Notes: a model not told the origin generated them from the sequence alone. A stretch of DNA of 64,000 nucleotides from a virus (IMGVR_UViG_3300033802_000463:72064-136063), one strand, 5' to 3'; counted from the first letter of the stretch, positions 43,696-62,528 are shown. Made by a program: numbers and translations.

Positions 43696-43717
43696 GCGCC
43701 TGACGGCGCGCTTCACT
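43696..43717 (+). promoter_or_regulatory. TGAC-hairpin element 1
   Basis: GCGCC-TGAC-GGCGC-GC-TTCACT. Confidence 0.75.
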
Positions 43718-43750
43718 GCAGATAAATTTTTCTTTCAAGGAGGAACTACG

Positions 43751-44191
43751 ATGAAAGAAGTTACGATTTACACTGACGGCGCCTGCTCCGGCAATCCTGG
43801 TCCTGGAGGCTGGGGAGCCGTTCTAACATATAAAGACAAGCAAAAGACGGCTTTTGGCTACGAGCCGCATACGACAAACAATCGTATGGAGCTTGTAGCC
43901 GTTATTGAGTCGTTGAAGCTTTTGAACCAACCCTGCCACGTCCAAGTGTATAGCGATTCAGCCTACTTGGTGAATTGCTTCAACAACAATTGGATCGAGG
44001 GTTGGCAAAAGAACGGCTGGAGAACCAGCAAAAATCAACCGGTGGAAAACCGGGAATTGTGGGAGGCGTTGCTTGAACTAATGAAGATTCATCAAGTTGA
44101 ATACTTCAAAGTCAAGGGGCACTCCCACGTTACATTAAACGAAATGGCTGATCGGTTAGCGCGTGAAGCCATTAAACGACATCGTTCTTGA
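43751..44191 (+). CDS. rnhA: Ribonuclease HI
   Basis: YTDGACSGNPGPGGWG, TTNNRMEL, SDSAY, KVKGHS, NEMADRLA. Confidence 0.95.
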   Translation: MKEVTIYTDGACSGNPGPGGWGAVLTYKDKQKTAFGYEPHTTNNRMELVAVIESLKLLNQPCHVQVYSDSAYLVNCFNNNWIEGWQKNGWRTSKNQPVENRELWEALLELMKIHQVEYFKVKGHSHVTLNEMADRLAREAIKRHRS

Positions 44192-44770
44192 TTTTACTGG
44201 CGGCATGTTTTTGCCGCCAGTGTGTGTTTATCTCTGTCTGCAGAGTAACAGCTGCACTGATGAGTCTTATTGGAGACGAAATAGAGAATCTATCATGGAG
44301 GCAATGCGAATGGCTGATCCGTCTATTTTTTTCTTATCAGAGATTGATTCTGCGAGTTTATATACTCGTGAAAATATTAAACGTGTAAAGGAGATGTTTG
44401 TTGAAGGGCTAAAAGCAGATGTAGAATCAAACCATATTGATCGTCAATTGGCGAATAAATGGTTTCGTATGATGATTCAGAATAAGATGGCTTTCGCCAT
44501 TGCCCTTGGGTCCGACTTTAAGGGTTTCCGTGTTGCTAAGAGCAAGTCAGATTTTCATCCTTATACGGAGAATCTGGCAATATGGCCCAGACAGCTTTTT
44601 TTATGATCGTTTGTCTAATTACGATCTTATTTACCAAGAAGTATATTCATGGAGAGGTGATAAGTTTAAGAGTGACACATTATACTTTATGTCTCGTAAG
44701 TTGAGGTTAGATGTTGGTTTGATAGGATCCCCTCGGACGATGGTCCGGCCGCCTATTCAATTTGAAGACT

Positions 44771-44803
44771 GAGGAGATATGATTCTTTTATCTCCTCTTT
44801 TTT
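44771..44803 (+). terminator. Intrinsic terminator
   Basis: GAGGAGATA/TATCTCCTC plus T-tract. Confidence 0.7.
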
Positions 44804-44888
44804 ATTTTCCTTCTCCTGTCCCGCTTCCACTTCACCTCCATTGAATGATGTTACTTTTTTATGTTCGACGTAAAAGATCATGCCAGGA

Positions 44889-44910
44889 GCGGCTGACGCC
44901 GCATTTCCAT
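44889..44910 (+). promoter_or_regulatory. TGAC-hairpin element 2
   Basis: GCGGC-TGAC-GCCGC-AT-TTCCAT. Confidence 0.75.
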
Positions 44911-45146
44911 CACAGATGTAGGCGAAACTTCTACATCAATCTTAGTCGTGGAGGTATTGCTTATGGTGGAGCAAGAGATCATGGAAATCATTCCAAGAGG
45001 AAACATGAAGCAATCGCAATATGATCTGCTTGTGAAACTGATAGGGATCTACTATCGTGCAAATGGATTAATGCTTCACATTGTTCCTGCTCCTGATACA
45101 CGTAACAAGAAATTGCGATTGATACGTGGGGATAAATGATGCATGA

Positions 45147-45168
45147 ATGCCTGACGGCATAATTCATT
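45147..45168 (+). promoter_or_regulatory. TGAC-hairpin element 3
   Basis: ATGCC-TGAC-GGCAT-AA-TTCATT. Confidence 0.75.
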
Positions 45169-45433
45169 ATCCAGCGTTGATTCACAAGGAGATGATATTG
45201 TGGAGTTGATCGATCCATGTCGTCGTCTTCATCTGCTTCGGCCAGGCAACCTGGTTGTAATTCAAGGCACTGTCATTGGCTGTTTAGGTGCGGAAGGAAA
45301 AATTGGTGTGATTACCGATGAGCCTAATCAGTCTGGATTATTGTCTCATAAGCCCGGTGTGAATGTAAAGCTTGATGCAGGCTTCGTATGGCTTGTCAAC
45401 AAAGATGCTGTAAAACCTTTTGGCAAGTGAATA

Positions 45434-45889
45434 TTGAGGAAGGATGTGCATGGAATGAAATATGAGATCTATCAGATCAAGGATGAGTATCGCAGGCAAT
45501 ATGGTTTTGCAAACTTGGATATATTGCCGATGAGATATAGAGAGGATACGGATCATCCTGTATTGATTTCAAATGGTGTTGTTCCTGTTCTAAATATCGA
45601 TGCTTATAACAAGGTGTATGAGGGTGATACTGCATCTATTGGTGGTATTGATCGTTTTGTTATTAACGATCCGGCCAACCCGATGCATAAGCAGCAAATG
45701 AGGTTGCTTGAGCATATGTTTGAAGTGTTTAATCTTTATCATCCTTCGGATTATCGCGCCCCCTCTATGAGTGTAGGCGATCTTGTTGTATTGTATCCGT
45801 ATGATGATAGTAACAGGGAAGCATTCTTTTGCGACAGCTTTTCCTGGAAACCAATTGAGTTAATGTCCCGCTCCGGGTCATGGAGTTGA
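45434..45889 (+). CDS. YodL-like domain protein
   Basis: YEIYQIK...Y.KVYEG...LE..FE.FN..HPSDYRAPSMSVGDLVVL...FCDSF. Confidence 0.75.
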   Translation: MRKDVHGMKYEIYQIKDEYRRQYGFANLDILPMRYREDTDHPVLISNGVVPVLNIDAYNKVYEGDTASIGGIDRFVINDPANPMHKQQMRLLEHMFEVFNLYHPSDYRAPSMSVGDLVVLYPYDDSNREAFFCDSFSWKPIELMSRSGSWS

Positions 45890-46066
45890 TCATTATGTAC
45901 AAAGCAACAATTTATTATCGATCGGGTCATACGGCGACTATTCGTTGTGACTCTATTTCTCTTGCACGTATGTATCTGTTTGGCCGTGGTGTGGATCATA
46001 TTGTAATGGCCATGCCCGGCCGCCCCTCTCTCCCTCCTATTATCCTTCGTCATTCATCCGATTCAT

Positions 46067-46088
46067 GCGGCTGATGCCGCTTTTCATT
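46067..46088 (+). promoter_or_regulatory. TGAC-hairpin element 4 (TGAT loop)
   Basis: GCGGC-TGAT-GCCGC-TT-TTCATT. Confidence 0.7.
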
Positions 46089-46896
46089 TTGATGTGCTAT
46101 AATACTGCTTGCATGAGGAGGATACAGAATGTTTAAAAAGAAACCAACGCTTAATAACGCATGACTGGCAGCCGGTTGATTCCCAAGGCTATGGGATGGA
46201 ATGCTCCAATTGCGGCAAATACATCTCTGCATTTGAGCCGGACGCTTGGAAGGCCGGCCAGGAGTCGCTTTGCATCCCGACGGCACGACTACAGAAGAGA
46301 AAATACGGAGGTGATATTCAGATGACAAAACCGGAAGGCGCATATTATTTTGACCAAGAATCAGGACTGTGGGTTACGGATGGAAAGCATGACAAACAGC
46401 ATTATTTTTGGTATTTGGAACATAGGCTAGGTTTTTCGCAAGAAGCAATATCTGCCATGAGCGATGAAGATCATTTCAATATGGCAGATATGTACGCGGC
46501 TGATTATTTATCATTTTGATGCTTTTGGGCTGATTCCATGCAGTGTTCCGTTTGTCGGAATAAAATTCAGTGTCCTTATACTTCGCTGCGCGGCAAGCTC
46601 TTTTGCATGTTTTTCACCAATAAAAATAAAGAGCTTGTCGCTCGCGGCGTCGTTGACTTCATGTTCATGGTTATGTATGATCAGCTGCCTTCGGATATTC
46701 AGAAACGCGTGCAAAAAATCATCGAAGGCAAGATTTCTCGTTTCGGCGTCTCCTTTGAGGAGATCGTGCAACAATATGCCGATATCGAAAAGACGTACCA
46801 GGAGTGGCTATTCAGAGAAAAATATGCTTGATAAGCCTGTCGGCTTGATTTCTGTAAATGGTTAATGCACACAACATTTAAGGAGGCATATGGTCT

Positions 46897-47337
46897 ATGC
46901 ATGCAAGATTCAATGCAAAATTCACATGCTGCCCGGAATGTTCTAACGTATGGCTTTTACCCGCGTTTGTGAAAGATTCCGATGTTCGATGGAAACTGTG
47001 CCCCAAATGCCGCGCAAGAAAGCGTGCGTTTTATGCGGTATTTTGGGGGAAGTATGTAAAAGCCATGCAAAATGGTGATTTAACCGAAGACGGTCTTATG
47101 GTTGCTCGCATCGATGGTGAGCATTACGTTATTGGTCCTGAAAATACTGTCGGCTTCCGAGGCTTCAGCGGACGCCGCTTTGTCATTCGGTTTACGGTTG
47201 GCCCGCATGCCGGCGAGATTGTGGAGACTACGAATCTGTGGCATCAAGGCACGATCTCACATGGATACGAGAAGATCCTGCATGACAATGCAGTGTTTGT
47301 GCCGCAAGAGTATCCTTCGTTGATCTCGGTATCATAG
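46897..47337 (+). CDS. Hypothetical phage protein with N-terminal Cys pairs
   Basis: AGGAGG SD; CPEC...CPKC; TTNLWHQG. Confidence 0.6.
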   Translation: MHARFNAKFTCCPECSNVWLLPAFVKDSDVRWKLCPKCRARKRAFYAVFWGKYVKAMQNGDLTEDGLMVARIDGEHYVIGPENTVGFRGFSGRRFVIRFTVGPHAGEIVETTNLWHQGTISHGYEKILHDNAVFVPQEYPSLISVS

Positions 47338-48486
47338 CATTTTCAAGCGGCTTACAATGCCGCTGCTGTCGTAGGGTTGTGCCCTGCCTGATGATGGCTT
47401 CTCTAAGCCGAAACAGCAAAACGATTATACTATGTGGAGGTTGATAAAATGCCTTATCAGCATACTTTGGAAGATCGCATTTACATCCTGCAGAAAACCA
47501 ATCTTCCGGATGATCTTTCCTATATGCTTCAACAGGCAGATCAGTATTATGTTCAATATCTGGACAAACAAGCTGAAGAGTTGGTTGCTCAAATTGAAAA
47601 AGAGTGTGTCGCAAGGAATATCAAATTGTTTAAGCCGCTTAATTGTTTTGCGGAGCTCATTTACACATAATTTTTGTTGAGCATTACAACATGATCTTTT
47701 TTTATACATAACAATGAATACCGTAAATATTTCGTTTGAAAGGATGATTAATTGTGCTTCAACGGTTTTTCATTCGTCCGTCTGGATCGGAATTTGCAAT
47801 TATCGCGGTTGTCGGCGGCGTGGAGACGGAGGTCGAGCGCGGCGCAAAGGCGCTTATTCGAGGCAAGTTTTTGCATTACGTGAAGAATCGATCGGCACTT
47901 ATTGAGAAAATTGGTGATCTGGCATGAGGCGTCATCTTGCTTTTTGGATTGCCGTCGGCCTGTTGCTTCTCTTTACCATCCGCATCTGGCTTCCAGTTCT
48001 GATTGGATTGGCGCTTGCTATCATCGCCATTTGCTTTGTGGTCAAAGTATTTGCAGACGGTTATGATTTATGGAGGACTCTTTCTCGCAAGCGGTGACGC
48101 TTGCTTCTTGCCCTCCCCCGGGATCAGACCATTGCATCCTATTGGGGCCACCCTGGCCCCCCTTTAAGAGGGCATACTTCCCCCAAAGGTATGAAGGTGC
48201 ATGTTTTGGAACAATCAGCGATTCTTGATTGACTGTCATGCTGCTTTTGCCGTATAGTGAGAAATGCTTCATGGCATCTATCAAGATTCTTTTTAGCGCT
48301 GTTCATTTTCCATTTTTGGAATCTTGTTCCATGTTTATTCGTGCCATTTCTCACTTGCTTGCTGCATGATTAAAAATGCACCTATAAATTATACATAGCG
48401 GAAAACCTGGGGTATTTTAACCCCAGTTATTTCCATCTGGTATATTTCACAAAATTGTCACATTTTGTTCGCATTTTTTATCTATT

Positions 48487-48508
48487 ATGGCTGACGCCAT
48501 GTTTCCTT
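48487..48508 (+). promoter_or_regulatory. TGAC-hairpin element 5
   Basis: ATGGC-TGAC-GCCAT-GT-TTCCTT. Confidence 0.75.
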
Positions 48509-48524
48509 TTGGGGTGAGTTTTCC

Positions 48525-49046
48525 ATGTATGTAATACAGTATCGTGATCACGCATCATTCGGTGAACTCCGCGTCGATCAAGTTCAGACTGAATCAGAAT
48601 TGTACGGATTCTTTCGAGAAGATGGCGGCGCTATCGATGTTATTCATTATTGGGAGATCCCTGGTACTGCAAATTTGTTTCGCCTAATTGTTGCAGGCAG
48701 CCGCGATTTCAATGATTACCCTCTACTCTGCTCCAAGCTTGATTATTTGCTTCAGAGACAGCCGTATACAATCATCGTATCGGGCGCAGCTCGCGGAGCT
48801 GATTCGCTTGGAGAAAGGTATGCACGAGAACACGGTCTGCCGATTGATCAATATCCTGCAGATTGGGTCAATTTAGGGAAGCGTGCAGGATATGTTCGAA
48901 ACGAACAAATGGCGAAAGTGGCGAATGCATGTGTTTGCTTTTGGGATGGAGTTTCCCCTGGCACAAAAAGTATGATCAAGCTTGCCCGCCAGTATAATTT
49001 GGATACGCGCGTGATCATATATAAAAACAATCTTATCACAAATTAA
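48525..49046 (+). CDS. SLOG/YspA (DUF2493-like) protein
   Basis: LIVAGSRDF, IVSGAARGAD, YPADW...GKRAGYVRNEQM, FWDG.S.GT. Confidence 0.85.
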   Translation: MYVIQYRDHASFGELRVDQVQTESELYGFFREDGGAIDVIHYWEIPGTANLFRLIVAGSRDFNDYPLLCSKLDYLLQRQPYTIIVSGAARGADSLGERYAREHGLPIDQYPADWVNLGKRAGYVRNEQMAKVANACVCFWDGVSPGTKSMIKLARQYNLDTRVIIYKNNLITN

Positions 49047-49063
49047 TTTTTGGAGGCATTTGG

Positions 49064-49597
49064 ATGATACAAAACCCTTCCATGCAACGAGAAGATATTG
49101 AACGTTTTCTCTCTATTTGTCGTGAAAGTACGCCGGCTCTGCTTCAAGCAGCCGGCGTTTTTGTTGATTATTCAGAAGAATCGTTATCGCATTGCGAGGA
49201 CTTTATCAATGCGATTTATCCGGTTGGACACATCCCGCATCCAACGACGGTCCTCCCTTTCGGCTATTACTTGGGAGAAACGATCATACGGAACATTCCA
49301 GATTCAAAGTGGGATGTTGATACACCAGCTGAAACGGTTTGGGATATTGGCGTCAAAATTGAAATACCTTTTGCAAGCGAAGACATGCCTCGAACACAAA
49401 TCGTTCGGCCGTTTATGCGTGCTCAGAAGTTTTGGCGAGATCGATCGGATGGTCTTCGCGCCATGTACATACTTGTCAATCAATTGTCACTTGGATTTGT
49501 TGATCCCACGAAAGCCAAACCTGGCGAATGGATAGAATTGCCTGTTGGCATCAAATTCCGTTACACAATTGCAATCAAGGAGGATTTAACAGAGTGA
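49064..49597 (+). CDS. Hypothetical protein (DUF3806-like)
   Basis: DYSEESL...FGYYLGETI...W pattern. Confidence 0.5.
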   Translation: MIQNPSMQREDIERFLSICRESTPALLQAAGVFVDYSEESLSHCEDFINAIYPVGHIPHPTTVLPFGYYLGETIIRNIPDSKWDVDTPAETVWDIGVKIEIPFASEDMPRTQIVRPFMRAQKFWRDRSDGLRAMYILVNQLSLGFVDPTKAKPGEWIELPVGIKFRYTIAIKEDLTE

Positions 49598-50034
49598 AAG
49601 AAGTAACGATCTATACAGATGGCGCATGCAGCGGCAATCCTGGCCCAGGGGGCTGGGGTGCCGTTTTAATTTATGGAGAAATAACGGAGCAACTCAGTGG
49701 TTACGAACCGCATGCAACCAACAATCGCATGGAGCTGATCGCAGTTATTGAATCACTAAAAGCGCTCAAAGAGCCTTGCCGCGTAAAAATCATCAGCGAT
49801 TCGGCTTATGTCGTCAATTGCTTCAAACACAAATGGTACGAATCCTGGATTGCAAAAGGCTGGAAAAACTCTCAAGGCAAGAAGGTCGAAAACCAGGAGC
49901 TTTGGGAGGAACTCCTGCATCTGATGACAATTCATCAGGTATTCTACCAAAAAACAAGAGGTCATGCTGATGATCAGTACAATAATCTAGCTGATCAGCT
50001 GGCTCGAAATGCAATTAAACAGCATGGTGCCTGA
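49594..50034 (+). CDS. rnhA: Ribonuclease HI (second copy)
   Basis: GTG start; YTDGACSGNPGPGGWG, TNNRMEL, SDSAY, RGHA, NNLADQLA. Confidence 0.95.
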   Translation: MKEVTIYTDGACSGNPGPGGWGAVLIYGEITEQLSGYEPHATNNRMELIAVIESLKALKEPCRVKIISDSAYVVNCFKHKWYESWIAKGWKNSQGKKVENQELWEELLHLMTIHQVFYQKTRGHADDQYNNLADQLARNAIKQHGA

Positions 50035-50048
50035 CGGCACAATTCGCT
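50027..50048 (+). promoter_or_regulatory. TGAC-hairpin element 6 (loop supplies the rnhA stop codon)
   Basis: GTGCC-TGAC-GGCAC-AA-TTCGCT. Confidence 0.75.
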
Positions 50049-50773
50049 TCAGATTCCATCAGTTTTCATCAGATCACATCATATTCTATTCAAATTGGAG
50101 GTTTTTACCATGAAACTCAGCTATTCCGTAAAAGATTTGCAAGTGAATATCCCGCTGCCAGAAGAGTTCACCGGTGCAGACGAACTTCTTTCCGTCAACA
50201 TTCATATTGGCGAATTGAATTATTCTCTTGAAGATGTGACGGTTACTGATTTGGTCAGTGGCTTGAAGGAGATTATTTCCCTATTTCTTGACAAATAAAA
50301 ACTGGCCGCATTTTCCACTTCTTTGATTCATAACAAGGAGAGTAGAAGCCATAAACTTGATTGATACAATTCTAAATCATGGGGTCGAGAACGTCTTCTT
50401 TCTCGCAAAGGCACGGCCGTTGAGGAAAGTCCTTTTTGTCTCCTACACATCTTCAAGCGATCCGGCAATTGAAATGATGTGCAAGATCGACACTAGCCGG
50501 TATAAGCTCGAAGACCAATACAAGATTACCATTGCTCCGATCTATGTAGGGTATGCTAAAGAAGATTACTATGTTACTGACTTGCAATCCATGCTGAATC
50601 GAGGATATGCCAAAATGTTGGTTCAGCTGCCTGTTGAGATACCGGCCAGGAAAACACTGCCGGTTATTTGATTTTCATATTCCCTATTTTTCATAGAAAA
50701 TATATTCTTATATGCTTATTATTGATGTTTATATATCATATGTGTATTTGAATATATTTTCTAATGAACAATG

Positions 50774-50810
50774 AAATAGGCGACATCCGAATCATGGGTG
50801 TCGCCTATTT
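50774..50810 (-). terminator. Terminator between convergent genes
   Basis: AAATAGGCGACA/TGTCGCCTATTT inverted repeat. Confidence 0.7.
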
Positions 50811-51647
50811 CTTAATAAACCATCTTACGAAGAATGGAAGCGAGTTGATTATCTCCTGTTTCATTTCTTGCCTTAATTGTTTATCTTCCAGTCTTTGATT
50901 CAATTGTTCCATCAACACTCTGTCTCGGACTTCAACATCTTGCCGCATGGTATTTACGGCATGATCGATGAGCTCCTTTTGCTTCTCATCTGAAGCCATG
51001 CTTTGCAAGGCGTTCATTGTTTCTGCTATTTTTTCTATTTTTTCTTGCATCTCATCAATCCGGCTATCTCCTGGAAGCATAAGCATCTTCTCTTCCAATC
51101 GCTTATCGATGAGTGCGTTCATCCATTCCGTCAATTTTTGGATTTGTTCCTCGCTGGCTCCAGCGAACGGATCGGCCAGGTTCGTGTCGCGTCTTGGTTC
51201 GTCATCGTAGTCATCCCGATCAATGATGCGAAATGCATCTGCCGAAACGATGCCAACCAGCTCCGCACAGCGCGACAGTTTGATGTTGTGGTGTTTTCGA
51301 AGCAGCAGCGCCATTTTGAGGCGAAAGACGGCTTGGTAGTCCATGATGACTGTGCGTCCACTCATCCGTGCCTCTATGTAATGGTTGAGCTGCTTTTGCC
51401 AGCTCCTCATGGTTGAAGGCTTGCAAAGGAAGTTGATCGCCTGCTCATGGGTGCAGTACCACTCTTCAAAATCTGTAGTGGTATAGTCTGCCCCCTCTTT
51501 CAGGTTCTCGATGTAGTCGTCAAACAGATATTCAACAAGATCAAGCTTCACTATGAGCTTGAACAGTGGATCTTGCTTAAATTCTTGGCTCAATCGCTCA
51601 CTCATGGGCATGCTAAGCGATGATGGTCGAATATGTTCATCCATCAA
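50805..51647 (-). CDS. MerR-like HTH plus coiled-coil protein with amphipathic C-terminus
   Basis: EQAINFL.KPSTMRSWQKQL; long coiled coil; ends LPFFVRWFIKK. Confidence 0.55.
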   Translation of the reverse strand: MMDEHIRPSSLSMPMSERLSQEFKQDPLFKLIVKLDLVEYLFDDYIENLKEGADYTTTDFEEWYCTHEQAINFLCKPSTMRSWQKQLNHYIEARMSGRTVIMDYQAVFRLKMALLLRKHHNIKLSRCAELVGIVSADAFRIIDRDDYDDEPRRDTNLADPFAGASEEQIQKLTEWMNALIDKRLEEKMLMLPGDSRIDEMQEKIEKIAETMNALQSMASDEKQKELIDHAVNTMRQDVEVRDRVLMEQLNQRLEDKQLRQEMKQEIINSLPFFVRWFIKK

Positions 51648-51872
51648 ATCAGATCACCTCAAATTTTATTCTAACCCAATGTGGCCTGATCTGTCACGAT
51701 TTAGCTTTGTTTACCTTTTATCATATTTCATCAGATTTTATCAGGTTTTATTATTCTTTGTTTTTCTATTGTATTCTGATATGTTCTGATTGATTCTGTT
51801 AGTTTATGTTTCATTATTTATCCATTTAGAACATATCAGATCAAATCTGATAATTTTCCGATGAAATCTGAT
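51648..51872. repeat. Helically phased ATCAGA/TCTGAT iterons
   Basis: Copies or one-mismatch variants at 51648, 51685, 51730, 51740, 51775, 51785, 51795, 51835, 51846, 51857, 51867. Confidence 0.7.
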
Positions 51873-51893
51873 GTGGAAGAGAGGAGGATTTCA

Positions 51894-52493
51894 TTGAAAC
51901 CGACAACATTGGGTGGAATCTACACCTCAATATTACTGTTAGTCGGATACGTGTTAAATTATCTTATCGTTCCAATTGCTTTATTATCTGCCGCGGTCGT
52001 AATCGCCGCGAGTTACTTTATTTTCAGCCGATTCACATGGCAAAAGGATGCCAAAATCGATCAGCTAACCGGCTGCCACAATCGCGCTGCTTTAGAATCC
52101 TACCTGGAATCTTTCAACGGTCGGCAAGCATGCGTCATGATGATCGACATTGACGATTTCAAGATGATCAATGACACCTTCGGTCATGATGCGGGTGATC
52201 GGATCCTCCGTGAGGTTGGCTACTTGCTTTCCAGTTACGTGCGACCTGGCGAAGTATATCGATATGGGGGAGAGGAGTTTGCCATCATCATGAAAGATGT
52301 TCCGAATCACCATGTGTATGAGATTGCCGACCGGATCCGGAAAGCTGTTGAGCATAACGTAAACATCAATGGCCATCCGATCACTGTTTCCATTGGCATT
52401 GCATGTAGTGTGAATCCAAAAGTAGCACTGAAAGCAGCTGACGAGTTTCTTTATATATCCAAACGCAAAGGCAAAAACACAATTACCTATTGA
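51894..52493 (+). CDS. Membrane-anchored GGDEF diguanylate cyclase
   Basis: DQLTGCHNR, IDIDDFKMINDTFGHDAGD, RYGGEEF, TVSIG, AD..LY.SK..GKN; two TM segments. Confidence 0.9.
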   Translation: MKPTTLGGIYTSILLLVGYVLNYLIVPIALLSAAVVIAASYFIFSRFTWQKDAKIDQLTGCHNRAALESYLESFNGRQACVMMIDIDDFKMINDTFGHDAGDRILREVGYLLSSYVRPGEVYRYGGEEFAIIMKDVPNHHVYEIADRIRKAVEHNVNINGHPITVSIGIACSVNPKVALKAADEFLYISKRKGKNTITY

Positions 52494-52513: not shown

Positions 52514-52570
52514 TTAGAGAGTCGCAAATGCGGTTCTTTTTTGATTTCAAGAGAAAGGAGGTTGTTACGA

Positions 52571-53957: not shown

Positions 53958-54995
53958 ATGTTGGATCAAGTAAAAGCAATTGTCGAAAACGGTGTTAAAG
54001 TTGAAGTTCGCGATCAAAATCAATACTCGCAATATCCGGTCATTGTTACCGATGTTGCTCCGGAGTCCATCACAAACGGCTGGTTTTTGACGTACTATCC
54101 GCGTCTGATTACGAAAGGAAATCCGCGGCTGTACGACGGTAAGGAAGCATTCTCGTCGCTGACGATTACCCATTTCAAGCGACTCTATGATCGGCTGATG
54201 GAGATCGACGCGCGATTTGCTTCCGGCGAAGGCGTAACGGTTGGTGCGAACAATCAACGTACCGCGACTTATGAGTTCCCGGGTAAAGCTCGTTTCCATG
54301 TGCGCCAATTCAATGACAGCGTGACGATCAGTCTGTCGATTACGGATCCCGCTTCGCCGTTCCACATGCTGGCGATCAATTTCCGGATCGTGAACAGCAA
54401 GAAGGAGCAAGGCAAGCGGCATCTGATCGGCTCGGAGTCCCAATGGGATCTGAATACTGACTCGTTTGTGGAGCACAATGCGATTCTGTCTCCGAAGAAG
54501 AAACGCTATCTGCAAGTGTTCCAGGAGGATCAAAACACGATCCCGTATGTTAAGGCGCCGAGCCGACCTGGTATGAATGGAACGACGCAAGTGGATCCGA
54601 ACAACAGCGAGTTCCTGTATCTCATGGATATCGACAATGCATACCGCGCACTTGCGTTCATCTATGAGCAAACGATTCTGGAACATGCAATGGCTGTAGC
54701 ACTGCCTCTGGTACAAGCAAAACAAGCTCCGGCTTCCAATGCATTCGGCGCTCCTGCAACTGGCGGCTTCGATGGACAACATGCATTCGGCGCACCGGCG
54801 CAAACGGGATTCGGCTTCCCGGCTGCAGGCTTTGGCGATCAAGCTGCTTCGTTCCAAAATCAAGCTTTTGGCGTTCAAGCGCAAGCACCAGCCAACAATC
54901 AATCGCAAAACGGGTTTGTGAAAGAGCCAGTAATGCAAAGCAGCAACCCGTTTATGCAAAAAGTAAATTGGGGCGATAATGACCGGGTATTCTAA
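53958..54995 (+). CDS. Hypothetical protein with low-complexity AFG-repeat tail (possible ssDNA-binding protein)
   Basis: GGAGG SD; beta-rich core; AFGAPA repeats; ends WGDNDRVF. Confidence 0.6.
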   Translation: MLDQVKAIVENGVKVEVRDQNQYSQYPVIVTDVAPESITNGWFLTYYPRLITKGNPRLYDGKEAFSSLTITHFKRLYDRLMEIDARFASGEGVTVGANNQRTATYEFPGKARFHVRQFNDSVTISLSITDPASPFHMLAINFRIVNSKKEQGKRHLIGSESQWDLNTDSFVEHNAILSPKKKRYLQVFQEDQNTIPYVKAPSRPGMNGTTQVDPNNSEFLYLMDIDNAYRALAFIYEQTILEHAMAVALPLVQAKQAPASNAFGAPATGGFDGQHAFGAPAQTGFGFPAAGFGDQAASFQNQAFGVQAQAPANNQSQNGFVKEPVMQSSNPFMQKVNWGDNDRVF

Positions 54996-55012
54996 TGCCC
55001 GGCCATTATCCT

Positions 55013-55051
55013 TAAAAAAAGAGAGCAGATTTTCTCTGCTCTCTTTTTTTA
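55013..55051. terminator. Bidirectional intrinsic terminator
   Basis: AAAAAAAGAGAGCAGA/TCTGCTCTCTTTTTTT. Confidence 0.85.
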
Positions 55052-55258
55052 TAAAAGATTACCCCCCCAGGGATGCGCCCCCCTCAGATGCAGCGATGTC
55101 TTGAAATTTATTTCAACAAGCTGTTATAAATGTATTGTTGTGGGCCGCTTTCTGATGGTATATTTGTATTTCTGATATATTTCTGCAATAGTTTGGGATT
55201 TACTGTGATTTTTCTTTAGAATTTGGTATACTATTTATATTGGAAAGGAGGGAATCGG

Positions 55259-57148
55259 ATGATACAAGTGCGAATGCAGTACGGTAATATTTATCTGAAG
55301 ATTCTCGACAGCATGGAAACATTCGATCATACACTTGAAAAAGTTCGCATGATTCGAAACCGCGGTTTTAACCTGGAAACCGGCGAATGGATGTTTGACC
55401 GGGAATACATCGGCGATTTGCTTGTGCTGTTTGGCAATCAGATTACATGGATGACGCCTCTGCACGAAATTGTCAACGGTCTCTCCCTGGATCATGAACT
55501 GGTGCAAAAGCATCTTCAATGGGAAGCGGATAACGAATTTAAGAACTTTTTGCTGCCCATGTATCCTTATCAGAAAGTGGGCGCGAACTTTTTGATTGAC
55601 CGAGGCTGCGCAGCAATTTTTGACGGTTGCGGCCTGGGCAAAACCCCCCAGCTCATAGGCGCATGCGAAAAGCTGTATGAACAGGGACTTGCAAAAAAAA
55701 TGCTGATTATCACGCTCAGTTCGCTCAAGCGCCAGTGGGTCAAGGAGATTGAGAAATTTACCGGCAAGCCGGCCATTGCGGTAACCGGCACTCCTTCGAG
55801 ACGAGCTTCGTTAATCAAAGAGTTTGCGAAGAAGAAAGATGTGCAGTACTTGGTCATCAATTACGAAATCCTTTGGAACGATACATTGCGCAAGTTGATT
55901 AAAAATACACCATTTGATGTGGTAGCGCTCGATGAGGCCCAAAAAATAAAGAACGGCGTGCGCGACAAAACTCTCAATATGGAGCCGAGCCAAATTGCTG
56001 CGGCAACATACGAGCTAAAACACATCAAATATCGTTTTGTGGCCACGGCTACACCGCTGCAAGGAAAAGCGGAAGAGATCTGGAGCATTTTCTATTTCAT
56101 TGACGAGAATATTCTCGGCAGTTGGGAGATGTTCCGGGAACGCTATTGCAAGTATCATTGGAAATATGGGATCACAGGTTATCAAAACCTGGGTGAATTG
56201 TACTACCGGATTGCACCATATTTTATCCGACGGACGAAAGAGATGCCGGAGATTCAGCAGCAGCTGCCGAAAGTGCAACACAGCCATATCTTCTTGGAAA
56301 TGACTGATGCGCAGGAAAAACTGCATGACTATCTGGTAAACAAGCTTGCTGAAGTGAAAGAACAGGCGCGCGGTATCCATGGATATACGTTTATTAACGG
56401 GCAATCCATGAGTCCGCAGGAGGCCAAAGAATATTACGATGCGCTTATACAGGGGTATCAAATCTTTTTGCTTGGTGTTTGTGACAGTCCGGAGCTTCTG
56501 CTTATGTCTCAAACCCCAATGGCCGAAAAAATCCTCAAAGATATTCCTTTAACTGATAAAGACTTGAAGTCACCAAAGATTGATCAGCTTAAAGAGTTTT
56601 TCAGCAGTATGACATACGATGAGCCCAATTCCAAAGTGGTTATTTTTACACGCTTTGAACGCATGGTTGAAATTCTGCATCGTGAGTTGAATAAAGATTC
56701 CCGCGGCCGGCCGTTAAGCGATCCAGTGGCTGTCATGTATCATGGCCAAATGACTGAAGCTGCCAAGGAATATGCAAAGGATCAGTTCGTCAATAATCCA
56801 AACATCAAGGCAATCATTTGCACCGACGCTGGCTCGACTGGACTCAATCTACAGGTTGCAAATTATATGGTTCATATTGATTTGCCCTGGGATCCAACGC
56901 TATTGGAGCAGCGCAACGGACGTATCGATCGTACAGGTAATGCCTTCAGCAATGTGACCATTTATTATTACTGTATGGAAAACAGTTATGATGAACATTT
57001 GTTGACCATTTTGGATCGCAAAGCTGAATTGGCGAATCAAGTGCTTACTGGCGGCCGTGATAGTACCAGTCGTGAAAAAGATGTAAATCGCTTGGCGATG
57101 GAGCGGCTGCTTCGTAAACGATATAAACAAAATGTATCTTCGGGGTAA
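55259..57148 (+). CDS. SNF2-family helicase/ATPase
   Basis: YPYQ, GLGKT, LDEAQKIKN, TATP, RRTK, GLNLQ, QRNGRIDR. Confidence 0.92.
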   Translation: MIQVRMQYGNIYLKILDSMETFDHTLEKVRMIRNRGFNLETGEWMFDREYIGDLLVLFGNQITWMTPLHEIVNGLSLDHELVQKHLQWEADNEFKNFLLPMYPYQKVGANFLIDRGCAAIFDGCGLGKTPQLIGACEKLYEQGLAKKMLIITLSSLKRQWVKEIEKFTGKPAIAVTGTPSRRASLIKEFAKKKDVQYLVINYEILWNDTLRKLIKNTPFDVVALDEAQKIKNGVRDKTLNMEPSQIAAATYELKHIKYRFVATATPLQGKAEEIWSIFYFIDENILGSWEMFRERYCKYHWKYGITGYQNLGELYYRIAPYFIRRTKEMPEIQQQLPKVQHSHIFLEMTDAQEKLHDYLVNKLAEVKEQARGIHGYTFINGQSMSPQEAKEYYDALIQGYQIFLLGVCDSPELLLMSQTPMAEKILKDIPLTDKDLKSPKIDQLKEFFSSMTYDEPNSKVVIFTRFERMVEILHRELNKDSRGRPLSDPVAVMYHGQMTEAAKEYAKDQFVNNPNIKAIICTDAGSTGLNLQVANYMVHIDLPWDPTLLEQRNGRIDRTGNAFSNVTIYYYCMENSYDEHLLTILDRKAELANQVLTGGRDSTSREKDVNRLAMERLLRKRYKQNVSSG

Positions 57149-57321
57149 TGCACATGGAGAAGAACAAGGATCGTTATATGGAGCTTCTTCGAATGGATCC
57201 GCAACAAGTGCTGGATTTGTATGTGGAAGCCGTGCAATCGAACAATGCGGAGACTGCCGAAGAACTCCGGGAGTTCATTACGGATCGCATGACGCAAGCT
57301 AACTTTTGTTGAATAAGGGGT

Positions 57322-57343
57322 AGGCCTGACGGCCTGCCTCTTT
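57322..57343 (+). promoter_or_regulatory. TGAC-hairpin element 9 (may also act as a terminator)
   Basis: AGGCC-TGAC-GGCCT-GC-CTCTTT. Confidence 0.65.
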
Positions 57344-57465
57344 TTAATTGTGTGAAAGACCGTTTTTTCTGGAATCTTTGAAATGCATTACAATAAATTT
57401 GTTGTTTTTTAATGTTTACACAGTGTATAATGCCTTATAGCATTGATCTTTAAGGAGTTGATCAA

Positions 57466-58320
57466 ATGAGCGCCAAAAAGCTCAAAGAATATCCTCCTAT
57501 CGAAAAATATTTCTGGTGGAACAAGAAAAAAGAAAAAGTTCCACCTCATGATCTGATTCGGTTGGAAGCAACCGGAAGTGCGGACATGTGGGGCGAATGG
57601 AGCTGGAGCGGCGGATATAATATCCAAGTCAATGTGGGCGATATTAATAATGCCTACGAATACGAGGGCCATTTGTGGGGGAAAGAGTATTATTATTATG
57701 ACAGCAAAAAGAAGCGTCGTGTAAGGCGTTACAAATACGATCTCTGCTTAAAAGTTCTAGCAGGAAACCGTCAATCACATATAATTGGACGTGCTAAAAA
57801 TCTAAGCAAGTTGAATTGTAAACGTCTGATTGTTCATATGATCTATGAGTATGAAAAGACGGATCATTTCAAAACAGAACTTTGGCCGAGAGCACTGGAT
57901 CCGGATAACCGCCAGCCTATTTTGAAGGAGATTGGCGGTGAGCTTTTCTGGATCGCAACGACTTGGAGAAGCTTATGGACCGCCGTTCGACAAGAAAAGG
58001 AATGCGGTTATTACAGCGGAAGCTACGTGTTTTCGCCAGGTACATACTATTCAAGGGAAACGAAATGGGAATGGGAATATCCCCATAAAGGAGAAGATGG
58101 TTGGAAGGATTATTCCCGTGGCGTTAAAGTATACAAGCCATATATTTATCATCAAGTGGATCATCATTTCGGATACTGCAGCGGCTCCGGGCTTGATCGT
58201 GACAAGCAAGGGATTTATGAAGCGCGGATCGATGAAGCAATTTGGGATGTTAATGATTTACTGATGAAATATATTATGATGGATCAATACCGCAAAATTA
58301 TTGGAAAGGAATATTTTTAA
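57466..58320 (+). CDS. Hypothetical aromatic-rich protein
   Basis: AAGGAG SD; 284 aa rich in W/Y. Confidence 0.6.
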   Translation: MSAKKLKEYPPIEKYFWWNKKKEKVPPHDLIRLEATGSADMWGEWSWSGGYNIQVNVGDINNAYEYEGHLWGKEYYYYDSKKKRRVRRYKYDLCLKVLAGNRQSHIIGRAKNLSKLNCKRLIVHMIYEYEKTDHFKTELWPRALDPDNRQPILKEIGGELFWIATTWRSLWTAVRQEKECGYYSGSYVFSPGTYYSRETKWEWEYPHKGEDGWKDYSRGVKVYKPYIYHQVDHHFGYCSGSGLDRDKQGIYEARIDEAIWDVNDLLMKYIMMDQYRKIIGKEYF

Positions 58321-58994
58321 TGTCCCGAATTTTGTATGAACCATTTAACATTCAAAAGCACAAGGAACATTTCATTGATTACTTGGAAATTGTCGTACTG
58401 GAAGATGGGGCAGTGGAATATGCCGTTCCATCCCACCAAGAAAAAATGATCTCGTTGTGCTGCAAAAAGCTTTCGGTTACCAGGGATGAGCTGAATGACA
58501 TGTGTCCGGTCGAATACTACATGAATTTTATGGAATGGTTATGTAAAATATCCGGCGCCATCCCTGTGTGGTTTAATTTCTTCATGGGAACTCCTAACGC
58601 ACAGCAGATTGAAACTCTGCGAATCCTGAAAGAGGAAGGTCTTTATGCAGGAGAAATCCCGAATTTATACAGATAAAAAGGAGTGTAGCGCCATGAGAAT
58701 AGACAATCTTGCCTTAACGCGGAAGCAGTATGAGGAAATTATGCTCGAAATTTGGGAATATCATCGATTTGGTGGGTTAAGTAAGAGCGACAAGGAACCA
58801 TGCCGCAACATCAAATACGTTGATCCTGTTTGGGATATGAGAGACGGAAGGTGCTTTGCCATAACATTTAGAGGACTTTGTACTGTGAATTTTGATTTTA
58901 GGCAAAGCGATCGGTCGATGTTCGAACGGATAATGGATTGGCTAGACGGCGACAAACCAGAAGATGTTGAAGCTGATGTGGAGATGAGGTTGGC

Positions 58995-59312
58995 ATGAGT
59001 AAATCAATCAGTAGGGCGAAAAAATACCGTAAAAAGCCTGTTGTTATTGAAGCGATTCAGTGGAAGCCATATGAAATGCTTATAAAAGATGTAATGGATT
59101 TCATGGGTATTTCTGGTGGAATGATGAAAAAAGGAGTTTTGTCTATCGGCAAGCGTAAGGGAGAATTGATTATTAAAACGCTGGAAGGCAATATGACGGT
59201 TTCAGACGGTGATTACATCATCAAAGGCGTGAAGGGAGAATTTTACCCATGCAAACCTGATATCTTTGATAAAACGTATGAATTGGTGGAGGGTGAAGCG
59301 TTTGTACAATGA
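58995..59312 (+). CDS. Conserved phage protein
   Basis: KYRKKPVVIEAIQW...IKTLEG.M....GDYIIKGV.GEFYPCKPDIF.KTYE. Confidence 0.8.
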   Translation: MSKSISRAKKYRKKPVVIEAIQWKPYEMLIKDVMDFMGISGGMMKKGVLSIGKRKGELIIKTLEGNMTVSDGDYIIKGVKGEFYPCKPDIFDKTYELVEGEAFVQ

Positions 59313-60274
59313 AGAAGACCTGGATTTTGATCAAATCTACCATGATAAGCCTATTCTGATTTCACCCTTAGCCGAAATTGAGGTCAGGCCAGTTGCCCAT
59401 GATCACATCAAAATTGACGGTCAATTGTATTCAGTTGGTATTGTGAATTATGTGAATAAAATTGCTTTTGTGAAACCGATTGATATTGACGGTGAACATG
59501 ACACCGAATACACTCAATATGCTGTATGTCCACATTGCGGCCACAAACATGTGGATTGTTTTGAATGGGAAGATGAAGGCGAAAACAATTGCAATCGCTG
59601 CGATTTGCCATTTTCTTATAGTCGGATTGTGACCATCGAGTATAAAACGGAGAAGATGAAAGGCCATAAGCCCGTGTTGGTGGAGGTGTAGAAGATGAGC
59701 AAGAAGAAGATAGAACGCGGCGGTAGCATCATAATGAGCGAGCCTTTGTTCAATGACATGCTTTCAAGGTATTTTGGCCTTGAACCCGAAACACTTCGAG
59801 TCGCTTGCGTGACAACAGAACACCATAAGAGAGCTGTAAAGATCTCATTTGTTACCGATGACGAACGATTTCCGGAGCTGATTGAAGGTCAACCATATCC
59901 GGAAATTACGATCGCCACCGAAATGATGAAACCCGCCGACAAACCGAATCGAAGTGAAATCAAGGTGCTGGGATTCGAGGGGATCACAAAATGATCGTTC
60001 CGATTGTCAAATTCATTGGCATAATGTTGTTATTATTTGTTGTCCTTATTGGTCTTTTGCAACTGATTTTCGTGATTTCGCTTTATACTTTCAACAAGGT
60101 CTTGTCTGAAGCCGGCATCGATCCTCTTTCTGCAGATGAAGCCAGAAAGGCGTTGAGAGGAGAGTGGGATTAGGTGACAACCGAAACGGATTACAAGTAT
60201 GAGAAAGAAATCTCCGAATCATACTATATCCAGCTCAACAACCATCGCTGCAATTGGGCTTACCACAACCACCA

Positions 60275-60384
60275 CAAGAAAGCCCCTGCCTTTAGGCATG
60301 GGGAGTGTCAAATGGTGACATGACCGGGAAATAAACGGGTATTACTACCCAAGAACCCCACGGCTTTAGCCGCTGGGAGGTTCA
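60275..60384 (+). mobile_element. Non-autonomous IS200/IS605-family mini-element (two end hairpins, no transposase)
   Basis: CAAGAAAGCCCCTGCCTTTAGGCATGGGGAGTGTCAA and CAAGAACCCCACGGCTTTAGCCGCTGGGAGGTTCA. Confidence 0.65.
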
Positions 60385-60879
60385 GGATAATTATGCTAAA
60401 GGCCATAAAACAGATATTTTATAGGAGGGGAAGAATATGAAACATTATTGTACAATTACAACGGAAGTGTATTTTTATAATGATATTAGTGAGATGAGAA
60501 AACATCGTGAAGAGATGGAATCTAAAGGGTGGAGAGTGGACGGTTGGGATGAGAATGGATTGCAAGCTTTTTATGAAATTGAAGTAAAACATTAATTAGA
60601 TAATAAAATTTAATTAAGGAGGAAATATTTATTAGAAGTTGGCAAGAACACCCGTCTCCATGGACTATTTTTATGCCGCTGTTATGCATAATACAGATAT
60701 ATCCGATCTGTTTTTTGATGGCGAGTATCTCGCGCATTGTTTGGATGTCGAGAGAACCGGTGACCGGCAGGCAATCACGTTTTGTGAAGTGGTTGCACCC
60801 GTTTTCTCTGAGATCCTTCGGAGAGAAAAGAATGCAGTCGAACATTTATAATTTTTAATGCAAAAATGTTGTGCATTAC

Positions 60880-60903
60880 ACACGCCTGACGGCGTGTTTC
60901 TTT
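60880..60903 (+). promoter_or_regulatory. TGAC-hairpin element 10
   Basis: ACACGCC-TGAC-GGCGTGT-TTCTTT. Confidence 0.75.
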
Positions 60904-61086
60904 TTGTATTAATCAAAAAATAGAGGTGATGTCCGTTTTTTTGAGCATTGACATACAAGATGTAGTATTCGTGATGATATATTGCATCTATTTATGATTA
61001 TTCGTCTTTTTCATTTTGTAATGCCTTGCAAAACCTGGGGTAGTATGTTAGTATAAGCCTACAGCGACAACCCAATAACAAGTGAG

Positions 61087-61689
61087 GTGAATGCGATGAA
61101 GAAGCGCAGATTTATTGCGATTTGCTTCGGCTTTTCACTACTTGCTACTGGACTTGTTATAGAAGCTAAGAGCATCTATGACTTGAAAAAAGAGCGAAAC
61201 GTGATACAAGCGGCCAATACGGAGCTCCGGCAGCAAATCGAATATCATAAAACCATGCATGAGGAGCTTCAAGAACAGTATAACGGTCTGATGGATCAAA
61301 ATCGTTCGCTTCAACAAGAAGTGGATGATCTGAAAGAGCAGCTGGAACAAGCAAAGGAAAATCAATGGTTGTCGTTCAGGGCTACATATTACGATGCATA
61401 CGAACCTTCTACAGGAAAAAAGCCTGGAGATCCGGGTTTTGGAATCACGCGATCAGGACGACCGGTAACCGAAGGGGTAACGATCGCCGTTGACCCTAAA
61501 GTGATTCCTTTGGGATCGTGGGTTGAGATCATGTACCCGGATGGAACAATTGAGAGGCGCCGCGCCGATGATACAGGAGGTCTTATCAAAGGAAGGCGCA
61601 TCGATATCTACGTCCCCAAAGCCACACTGGCGATGGGCGTTGATGAGGTTAAAGTGAGAATGATTTCCAAGCCGGGCAAAAACACCTAA
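61087..61689 (+). CDS. 3D-domain cell-wall protein with signal anchor and coiled coil
   Basis: ATYY...GIT.SG...TIAVDPKVIPLGS...ADDTGG.IKG.RIDIY. Confidence 0.9.
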   Translation: MNAMKKRRFIAICFGFSLLATGLVIEAKSIYDLKKERNVIQAANTELRQQIEYHKTMHEELQEQYNGLMDQNRSLQQEVDDLKEQLEQAKENQWLSFRATYYDAYEPSTGKKPGDPGFGITRSGRPVTEGVTIAVDPKVIPLGSWVEIMYPDGTIERRRADDTGGLIKGRRIDIYVPKATLAMGVDEVKVRMISKPGKNT

Positions 61690-61969
61690 TCGCACAGAGA
61701 AAGAAGCTAATCAGCCAGTTAGGAGGTAACGATATGCCGCCAAAACAAGGGGATTTGTTTGAAGATGCTTTTGATGAAATGATTCCGAAACGCAACACGA
61801 ATCAAGAGCAGCCGGCCAATAATAACGAGATCTCCAAAGACGAAGTTCGCACCTCGTATCTTTTGGTCAATGTCCTGCTCACGTTGCTGATTGAAAAAGG
61901 CTACATTCAGCAGCAGGAAGTTGATGTCTTGCTGGAAGAAATGTATGCCGAATATAAGCGGAAAGTAGG

Positions 61970-62314
61970 TTGATCACTATGCCTACGGTTTCCCAATTGC
62001 GTCCTTATGTCACGCATTTTTCCGAAGAACTCAAGCTGAAAGCCCGGGCAAGAGACCAGGTTACAGTTGCCGGCCGCATTGATTCCGTTAGCCGTATTGA
62101 TGATGATTACACGGTCATGGTGTTGGATGATTTCGTCGGCCAGACGCGCATCATCATGTCCAATATCATGTACAATCATTTCAAATCGATCATCGACATC
62201 GGCAACTTTGTATCGGTTGAAGGCTACGTGAACGTGGTTACCCGAAAAGTTGCCGGCCAAATGGAAAGCGAATATTCCATCATTGGCTACGACATGAACA
62301 TTCTGACGTTCTAA
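61970..62314 (+). CDS. Stand-alone OB-fold protein (DnaE C-terminal OB-like)
   Basis: VTVAGRI...MVLDDFVG...V.VEG.V. Confidence 0.6.
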   Translation: MITMPTVSQLRPYVTHFSEELKLKARARDQVTVAGRIDSVSRIDDDYTVMVLDDFVGQTRIIMSNIMYNHFKSIIDIGNFVSVEGYVNVVTRKVAGQMESEYSIIGYDMNILTF

Positions 62315-62325
62315 GGAGGACCATC

Positions 62326-62505
62326 ATGCGCAATATTTTGGTTTTCCCAGATGGCACGCAGCAGGATTTCATGTATCCGCAAGATCGAGACATTGAAGTG
62401 GGAACCGAACTTCAAGTCACGATGATGGACGATTCGGTGCATAGGATGAAGGTTTCCTCAATTGAACGCGAAGAAAAGCGTATCCTGTACCGGTTAACGT
62501 ATTAA
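62326..62505 (+). CDS. Small hypothetical protein (59 aa, absent from ORF track)
   Basis: AAGGAGG SD; MRNILVFPDGTQQDF... Confidence 0.6.
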   Translation: MRNILVFPDGTQQDFMYPQDRDIEVGTELQVTMMDDSVHRMKVSSIEREEKRILYRLTY

Positions 62506-62506
62506 T

Positions 62507-62528
62507 GTCGCTGACACTCCAATTCATT
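62507..62528 (+). promoter_or_regulatory. TGAC element 11 (stem degenerate) upstream of ssb
   Basis: GTCGC-TGAC-ACTCC-AA-TTCATT; loop and TTC spacing retained. Confidence 0.5.

Follow-up and report, generated by a model that had tools for sequence, protein, structure and literature searches.

Hairpin promoters are reported, in the literature searched, only for N4-type phages, and no paper found there defines a promoter for an RNA polymerase of the YonO type. The N4 early promoters P1-P3 are read by the virion RNA polymerase gp50. They have a GC-rich core within an inverted repeat, variable stem bases that need only to pair, a 3-nt loop with a sheared G:A pair and a short ruler from the stem to +1 (PMC4496689). 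Hardies, Thomas and Serwer (2007) proposed, on computational grounds, that the Pfam05183 polymerase of phage 0305phi8-36 acts at 14 phage-specific candidate promoters of 21 bp, which they judged suitably placed for middle expression (PMC2147016). In that text the words "stem-loop" and "palindrome" are absent and "hairpin" occurs once, for terminators; in the passages searched, the 21-bp motif is presented neither as a hairpin nor with any covariation (PMC2147016). The promoter sequence of YonO itself was left undefined by Forrest et al. (2017), where P_YONO is a single mapped start in prophage SPbeta (PMC5467207), and the word "hairpin" is absent from the text of PMC10770324. Described here is a set of small TGAC-loop hairpin elements in a 64,000-nt stretch of viral DNA, IMGVR_UViG_3300033802_000463:72064-136063 (hereafter the window; positions are counted from its first letter). 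The elements follow a gene for a predicted two-barrel RNA polymerase and are read here, at a probability of roughly 0.57, as promoters of N4-like design specific to that polymerase.

The window is the final 64 kb of a 136,063-nt IMG/VR virus contig (GC 46%, CheckV completeness 69%). It has ten co-oriented + strand elements at positions 43696-60907, with a 5-bp covarying stem, a TGAC loop and TTC 7 nt past the loop. An earlier note on this DNA listed eleven elements, and all eleven positions hold. The eleventh (62507) is degenerate because it has only 2 of 5 pairs and an E value of 5.1 with a covariance model of the motif. A weak twelfth candidate was added at 46833. The elements are as follows, with covariance-model scores in bits.

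43696-43721, + strand: element 1, GCGCC-TGAC-GGCGC gc TTC; perfect stem, 38.2 bits; 506 nt past the previous stop and 36 nt ahead of the RNase H gene start
44889-44914, + strand: element 2, GCGGC-TGAC-GCCGC at TTC; perfect stem, 29.0 bits; 55 nt to the next start
45147-45172, + strand: element 3, ATGCC-TGAC-GGCAT aa TTC; perfect stem, 31.0 bits; 34 nt to the next start
46067-46092, + strand: element 4, GCGGC-TGAT-GCCGC tt TTC; 37.6 bits; the TGA of the loop is the stop of the upstream open reading frame (ORF)
46833-46858, + strand: weak candidate of uncertain membership, AAGCC-TGTC-GGCTT with a shifted box; 15.7 bits, E 0.24; 45 nt ahead of the start at 46897
48487-48512, + strand: element 5, ATGGC-TGAC-GCCAT gt TTC; perfect stem, 38.8 bits; 389 nt past the previous stop and 19 nt ahead of the ATG at 48525
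50027-50052, + strand: element 6, GTGCC-TGAC-GGCAC aa TTC; 29.7 bits; the TGA of the loop is the stop of the upstream ORF
52492-52517, + strand: element 7, GAGCC-TGAC-GACTC gc TTC; 4 of 5 pairs with one C.A (closing C 52496), 38.2 bits
53496-53521, + strand: element 8, GAGCC-TGAC-GGCTC gc TTC; perfect stem, 41.1 bits; 36 nt to the next start
57322-57347, + strand: element 9, AGGCC-TGAC-GGCCT gc CTC; perfect stem, extended to 12 bp (57315-57342) and followed by a T-run
60882-60907, + strand: element 10, ACGCC-TGAC-GGCGT gt TTC; perfect stem, 39.5 bits
62507-62532, + strand: element 11, GTCGC-TGAC-ACTCC aa TTC; 2 of 5 pairs (closing C 62511), E 5.1; 46 nt ahead of the start at 62572

Perfect 5-bp Watson-Crick stems are present in nine of the eleven copies, as had been claimed (closing C at 43700, 44893, 45151, 46071, 48491, 50031, 53500, 57326 and 60886). 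The loop is TGAC in ten copies and TGAT in one, and TTC stands 7 nt past the loop in ten of the eleven, the exception being CTC in the copy with closing C 57326. The first element stands 1.2 kb past the polymerase gene. The claim that the elements are co-oriented and found only 3' of the polymerase gene extends to the whole 136-kb contig, where no stemmed copy lies outside window positions 43696-60907; the remaining 110 kb, with the structural and other genes, has no stemmed element.

The pattern CTGACGN6TTC, which demands no stem, has nine matches in the window compared with 0.61 +/- 0.78 expected, and none of 100 shuffles reaches nine. Eight of the matches are on the + strand (43700-60900), and seven of these eight have perfect stems; the ninth, on the minus strand at 554-568, is stemless. 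The whole contig shows eight forward matches and one reverse match, with one and none for the same pattern written backwards. Same-loop 5-bp hairpins were also counted on the + strand at 39000-64000. The largest class has eight members, and a class of more than three never arises in 100 Markov shuffles.

A close relative is present in a 99.9-kb provirus record (G001), whose polymerase is 76% identical to that of the window. It has 20 forward and 5 reverse matches to the pattern, compared with 2 and 1 for the controls. Among the 20 forward matches, 15 have four or more of the five stem pairs and 11 are perfect; they span positions 36472-89626. The array begins 430 nt past the polymerase gene and reaches 53 kb downstream, with elements preceding genes for an AAA ATPase, a UvrD helicase, a DnaG-type primase and a sliding clamp. 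Two tandem copies are 77 nt apart with no ORF between them.

Covariation was assessed with 26 copies, 10 from the window and 16 from G001. Stem cells are paired in 96.9% of cases compared with 69.3 +/- 2.6 in shuffles, and slid controls of the same alignment give 26-60%. Changes on both sides of the stem are present in four of the five pairs (33 cells). The 26 rows were chosen partly for pairing, so the unbiased check is the presence of perfect stems in 7 of 8 stem-blind matches given above. The consensus is RNGSC-TGAC-GSCNY-NN-TTC-(A)T-YYY-RR, in which the core G.C-TGAC-G.C is fixed. Counted from the closing C, positions -4 to +21 are conserved, and conservation is absent from -40 to -5 and past +25 (scanned to +70). 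Since conservation begins at the stem, the hairpin marks where the signal begins on its upstream side. The covariance model of the 26 copies recovers its training copies and otherwise only weak extras: the candidate at 46833 (E 0.24) and copy 11 (E 5.1) in the window, two degenerate copies in G001, and four further weak matches with E 0.8-8. The imperfect arms of element 11 have counterparts elsewhere. The pair GTCGC/GCTCC recurs at G001 60079 and 76100 and at position 127122 of a complete 229-kb relative (G002), and G002 139317 has GCTCT. The same imperfect arm pair in three genomes and with two loop types makes it seem that some copies are held as poor hairpins on purpose.

The gene at the head of the array is:

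39046-42477, + strand: predicted two-barrel RNA polymerase gene of the QDE-1/YonO/RdRP type, single chain of 1143 aa

The product matches Pfam PF05183 over residues 448-787 with 36.1 bits (cut-off 23.8), and the metal-binding DxDGD (D646, D648, G649, D650) is invariant among 11 homologues. The AlphaFold model has a pLDDT of 82.5. When analyzed by Foldseek it is closest to QDE-1 (2j7n, E 4.7e-19) and RDR2 (1.5e-16), with weaker matches to the non-virion polymerase of P23-45 type (P32 gp64; 8f72, 2e-4) and crAss gp66 (6vr4, 2.3e-4); a sequence profile of the polymerase has no match in the PDB. By domain match and modelled fold, then, the product of 39046-42477 is a two-barrel RNA polymerase of the QDE-1/YonO type, in agreement with the earlier note. 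It is the only PF05183 gene and the sole recognisable RNA polymerase gene in the contig, where no sigma-70 region 2 and no beta-subunit homologues are found. A T7-type polymerase (PF00940) has no contig match either, a weak check as the control genomes hold none. A search for a single-stranded DNA-binding protein (SSB) in the contig gives only a sub-threshold match of 13.3 bits (ORF 62572-63360).

Homologues of the polymerase are encoded in Paenibacillus, Bacillus and Alicyclobacillus, on contigs and plasmids about 190-260 kb long. The homologous loci were obtained by an alignment-based search; a word-based search with the single protein gave none. Megablast and tblastn of the polymerase region against a cultured-phage collection give no match, and the 451-aa core of the polymerase finds among cultured phages only SPbeta-like phages, with 24.5% identity over part of the sequence. 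No TGAC element stands ahead of the polymerase gene, which thus would be transcribed first by another enzyme. A 28-nt inverted repeat (window 38913-38940 and 43257-43284, 27 of 28 positions complementary) brackets the polymerase gene and a gene for a 214-aa protein; in G001 the same repeat flanks the polymerase gene alone (32474, 36155). At two positions both arms have changed together and are still complementary. To judge from the sequence, this repeat may act in RNA as a processing stalk or in DNA as a site of inversion.

Polymerases 31-41% identical to that of the window are accompanied by analogous but different elements on the same strand. In G002 the element is NGGCC-TGTC-GGCCN-CATTC, with 8 of 8 copies forward and up to 44 kb past the polymerase gene. 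In another complete genome of 216 kb (G003) it is NNGCC-TCC-GGCNN-RTTTGGTG, with 8 of 8 copies on the polymerase strand. Other loci have the loops ATCC (L018), TAAC plus GGCTTTATGA (L020), TATC plus TTGGTGAAT (L010) and, in one copy, TAC (L015). With more distant polymerases there are arrays of CCC-(A/G)TTC-GGG plus TAATAGTA (L028 and L029) and a TATC array (L025). The loop type tracks the polymerase tree: TGAC in the window and L009, TGTC in L021 and L012, TAAC/TAC in L020 and L015, and TCC in L016. A class of three same-loop hairpins in 13 kb arises in 1-7 of 100 shuffles, and therefore the whole-record counts carry the weight.

The cultured jumbo phage 0305phi8-36 (NC_009760) encodes gp99, and a profile match (A1 profile, E 2.5e-11) confirmed gp99 as a member of the same polymerase family. 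On the gp99 strand there are 16 hairpins of the form NNNCGT-TCGC-ACGNNN plus TgTTtTGTA, from 207998 to 144277. The array opens 28 nt past the gp99 stop. A further TCGC hairpin with a divergent box is located at 211787 (minus strand), about 90 nt upstream of the gp99 gene, and hints at autoregulation of the polymerase gene in this phage. The 21-bp motif of 2007 is likely to be the TCGC hairpin found here. The earlier note knew of no description of hairpin promoters for such a polymerase. This has to be qualified, since a 21-bp promoter motif had been proposed in 2007, although not as a hairpin in the passages searched (PMC2147016). Like the present elements, the 2007 candidates are a phage-specific repeated motif that follows gene orientation, lies in short non-coding spaces on the polymerase-bearing arm and accompanies a polymerase of the Pfam05183 family. 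The sequences differ, TCGC and TgTTtTGTA there and TGAC and NNTTC here.

The positions of 30 copies (12 from the window, 18 from G001) were compared with neighbouring genes. In 22 of the 30 the end of TTC is followed after 18-65 nt by the next start codon, and the spacing from the preceding stop codon is -8 to 506 nt. Where gaps are long, the element adjoins the downstream gene in nine cases compared with six otherwise, by our own reading, and some of the six exceptions have a small ORF or a possible RNA downstream. The statements that copies 1 and 5 follow long gaps (about 506 and about 389 nt) and that copy 2 stands behind an ordinary terminator are both borne out. The latter is:

44771-44797, + strand: predicted intrinsic terminator, 9-bp stem then TTTTTTATT, 92 nt upstream of element 2

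Independent terminators are located 33-92 nt upstream of four elements (window copy 2 and G001 37082, 43784 and 58391, the last being the orthologue of element 10, 33 nt behind its terminator), and two others have one at a distance of 183-220 nt. Element 5 also has a terminator-like hairpin upstream, at 48407-48426. RNA from upstream would mostly stop before such elements, and this favours start signals over processing sites or terminators.

Several observations weigh against a promoter role. An intrinsic terminator (52516-52539 plus a T-run) is located 13-20 nt after element 7, an odd place for one if the element is a promoter. In the G001 orthologue (48155) the stem is perfect and a terminator (48182-48199) follows after 13 nt, so that the structure is kept between window 52516-52545 and G001 and the sequence is not. 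This is the one orthologous site with a terminator downstream of an element; it could be an attenuator, give a very short RNA or block host read-through. The stem of element 9 reaches 12 bp and is followed by a T-run, so that the element looks like a true terminator, and G001 has the same design at 52817. In several lineages the stems are followed by T-rich tails. The 13 placed hairpins of 0305phi8-36 start a median of 5 nt past the previous stop, which is a spot for a terminator or 3' stabiliser too, and Hardies et al. read the hairpin after orf81 as a terminator (PMC2147016); by its position it appears to be one of the TCGC hairpins. The first + strand gene after the minus-strand gene 50805-51647 has no element. 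The contig is 69% complete, and a second polymerase or a specificity factor could be encoded in the missing part. Lastly, at least three same-loop hairpins are present in only 5 of 13 close-family loci within the available flank. Among the other eight, four (L011, L014, L017 and L019) have less than 5 kb of downstream flank, and L012, L013 and L015 have no class of at least three in 10 kb. Kin share motifs, so a match between loop and clade is no proof of co-evolution.

The nearness of some copies to stop codons is consistent with a signal in RNA. The hairpin would then be part of a polycistronic phage RNA, and the phage would encode an RNA-binding protein that binds it or a nuclease that cuts it, the cut leaving a 3' hairpin that stabilises the upstream message and freeing the downstream cistron. 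Thirteen of the 30 copies are at or over the upstream stop codon (-8 to +9 nt), as the 0305phi8-36 spacing would also suggest, and a fixed loop with a box at fixed distance suits an RNA binder as well as a DNA binder. The C(UUCG)G tetraloop is known for its stability in RNA, and the CCC-TTC-GGG hairpins of L028 and L029 can be read as this tetraloop. A sub-threshold hammerhead match at 44231-44287 indicates that RNA processing may occur in the region. Such processing would leave unexplained the four elements that have an independent terminator 33-92 nt ahead of them, which few upstream transcripts should pass, and elements 1 and 5, which are at the far end of gaps of 389-506 nt and adjoin the next gene. 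The tandem G001 copies 77 nt apart without an ORF between them also speak against it, as does the lack of an identified candidate nuclease. Stem pairing is divided on the point: one G.T pair favours a fold in RNA or on the + strand, and two C.A cells break the RNA stem and give G.T on the template strand. This explanation is considered unlikely.

A second possibility suggested by the same elements is that each hairpin closes a short transcription unit, as a terminator or pause signal that is either weakly intrinsic or specific to the phage polymerase. The stems are GC-rich and are followed by T-rich sequence; the 5-bp stems have folding energies of -6 to -12 kcal/mol in RNA. A terminator filter requiring a U-rich tail is passed by 3 of 10 window copies, with element 9 a strong case, and by 3 of 18 in G001. 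The orf81 hairpin mentioned above has been read in this way, and a metatranscriptome contig that stops at 57299, just before element 9, gives a weak hint. The other seven window copies have no U-tract, and neither a fixed loop sequence nor a TTC box is needed for intrinsic termination. Several elements stand behind ordinary terminators and would be redundant. The sole convergent junction in the block (50671/50805) has an ordinary terminator at 50641-50664 and not a TGAC hairpin, elements in long gaps mostly adjoin the downstream gene (nine compared with six), and the box TAATAGTA of L028 and L029 is not U-rich. The terminator past element 7, element 9 and the stop-codon spacing in 0305phi8-36 are the reasons why RNA processing is retained as an unlikely explanation and termination as a decidedly improbable one.

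TGAC is the core of TTGACA, and the elements could also be viewed as host sigma-A cassettes of the PeSL type (promoter-early stem-loop), with the cTGACg loop as the -35 box and the stem-loop attenuating upstream transcription. PeSLs are described from the T4-type phages RB49 and phi1, where they join promoters to stem-loops (Arbiol et al. 2010; PMC2839356). As described there, they resemble the present elements in being repeated cassettes of stem-loop and promoter between early genes, bounded by an upstream stop and a downstream Shine-Dalgarno sequence. If CTGACG is read as the -35 box, a -10-like hexamer that has A2, T6 and no fewer than 4 of 6 matches follows at 16-18 nt in 6 of 26 copies compared with 6.5% of random positions, and a match of at least 5 of 6 follows in 3 of 26 compared with 0.85%. 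Element 4 is followed by an extended -10-like TGcTATAAT at 46095-46103, which G001 keeps as TGcTACAAT. The TGAC loop as a sigma-A -35 box was rejected for the other 20 copies, which have no -10 at 16-18 nt. Sigma-70-like sites in the region number 37 compared with 37.9 expected in shuffles, and the loops TCC, TAAC, TCGC and ATCC of relatives are unlike a -35 box. PeSLs have the sigma-70 consensus and the position of their stem-loop varies with respect to the boxes (PMC2839356), whereas here the distance between hairpin and box is fixed and 20 of 26 copies are without a -35/-10 pair. Host cassettes of this type are a very improbable explanation.

Two metatranscriptome runs include parts of the region as assembled contigs with patchy coverage, which speak neither for nor against a promoter role. 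The SNF2 helicase gene (55250-57299), which has no element, is the best-covered part of the 20 kb examined in the two runs, and the contig over it is the one that ends at 57299. The helicase may be expressed in a carrier state. The gene is preceded by a sigma-70-like site at 55193-55222.

The earlier note regarded the functional strand as ambiguous, and the folding data agree. Among the non-Watson-Crick cells of the stems, two C.A favour the template strand, one G.T favours the + strand or RNA, and two favour neither. DNA folding energies of the two strands are near equal, with differences of 0.1-0.4 kcal/mol and of 1.1 kcal/mol for the mismatched copy 7. On the template strand the loop of the TGAC elements reads C-GTCA-G. 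Of 10 loop types in the various lineages, seven have G first and A last on the template strand (GTCA, GACA, GTTA, GATA, GCGA, GGA and GAA), and three do not (GGAT, GAAT and GAAC).

The preferred explanation, that the elements are promoters for the phage's own polymerase, would operate as follows. Another enzyme, presumably the host RNA polymerase, would first transcribe the polymerase gene. The phage polymerase, alone or with a cofactor, would then start at about 10-12 sites that head units of 1-5 genes belonging to the replication and DNA-metabolism block. Each site would be a 26-nt unit, a 5-bp inverted repeat in which three positions need only to pair around the core G.C TGAC G.C, with a box NN-TTC-(A)T-Y3-RR at a fixed distance. 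As in N4, the repeat would extrude into a small hairpin with the loop C-GTCA-G on the template strand, and transcription would start a few to about 12 nt past the stem to give short leaders with a ribosome-binding site. The structural genes, which have no elements, would be read in some other way, and the whole scheme would be a cascade. Of the earlier proposal of hairpin promoters for a YonO-type polymerase, the type of enzyme, the arrays in relatives and positions that suit start signals have stood up; the promoter role, the reader, a hairpin in DNA and not in RNA, and the start point are what we infer. A broader generalization would be that the single-chain polymerases of the whole QDE-1/YonO/gp99-type clade find promoters through their shape, that of a small hairpin which the template strand extrudes, with lineage-specific loop codes and a short start box. 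This is put forward tentatively, at somewhat less than even odds.

The likeness to the N4 promoters is one of sequence design. Both have a small inverted repeat with a GC core and with fixed and pairing-only stem bases, both are strand-specific, and there may be a G...A loop closure on the template strand and a short fixed stretch from the stem to the presumed start here as well. The loop is 3 nt in N4 and 4 nt here. The N4 enzyme is T7-like, whereas the only polymerase gene found here is of the two-barrel QDE-1/YonO type. N4 has three promoters at one genome end and an injected enzyme, and extrusion, the SSB requirement and the start sites are demonstrated; here 10-20 copies of the candidate promoter are spread over 17-53 kb of replication genes. 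YonO is also a single-chain two-barrel phage polymerase, although a very distant one (the 24.5% identity given above). It serves late genes from one start upstream of yonK, whereas the many sites here are at replication genes and none are at structural genes. The SPbeta yonN-yonK gap has three single hairpins and no repeated class.

In the first 109 kb of the contig nearly all genes are on the minus strand, including those for myovirus structural proteins and a protease-like gene within the same block. Gene direction is + from window position 39046 on, with the polymerase gene first, and the replication and DNA-metabolism block that follows, here including RNase H and the SNF2 helicase, carries the elements. 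Two of the structural genes are:

4654-7452, in the minus-strand block: tail sheath gene
22964-25192, in the minus-strand block: portal gene

Other features were observed along the contig. A homologue of a partition protein is encoded at window 32414-33613 (minus strand; PHROG 691, E 2e-50). This homologue, together with the plasmid records among the relatives, suggests a phage-plasmid lifestyle for the virus. A group I intron (92 bits) is present at 27817-28067 (minus strand) between predicted minus-strand ORFs, near a cluster of eight tRNA genes at 34076-34808 (minus strand). The hammerhead match at 44231-44287 (+ strand) is of type III, with 38 bits compared with a gathering threshold of 48.5 (E 5.3e-5) and a CUGAUGA...GAAA core, and is located just past the RNase H gene and a hairpin at 44195-44222; a search of 37500-64000 with Rfam gives no HDV-like ribozyme, up to an E value of 1. 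Several intergenic sites have a palindrome, TTGTAATG-CATTACAA, or half of it. The motif is present at window 35012-35027, 37518, 2451 and 57386 and at G001 26337, 31346, 63891 and 68819, and several times adjoins TATAAT-like boxes. It looks like an operator for a dimeric regulator acting on host-type promoters. A 2325-aa protein of the tail operon (contig 60321-67298, minus strand, upstream of the window) has no Pfam family and no PDB sequence match.

How YonO-type polymerases find their promoters was left open by Forrest et al. (2017), and the elements provide a concrete candidate signal that can be mutated. The covarying stems are built-in compensatory-mutation tests, and the cultured phage 0305phi8-36, with 16 copies of its own version, makes the question directly testable. 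If the elements are RNA processing or termination signals instead, they would represent a new family of phage message punctuation. If they are hairpin promoters, structure-specific promoter recognition would have arisen twice, in unrelated polymerase folds, as a convergence with the T7-like polymerase of N4. The lineage-specific loops would then be compact orthogonal transcription parts, and the family would hold natural, mutually orthogonal polymerase-promoter pairs.

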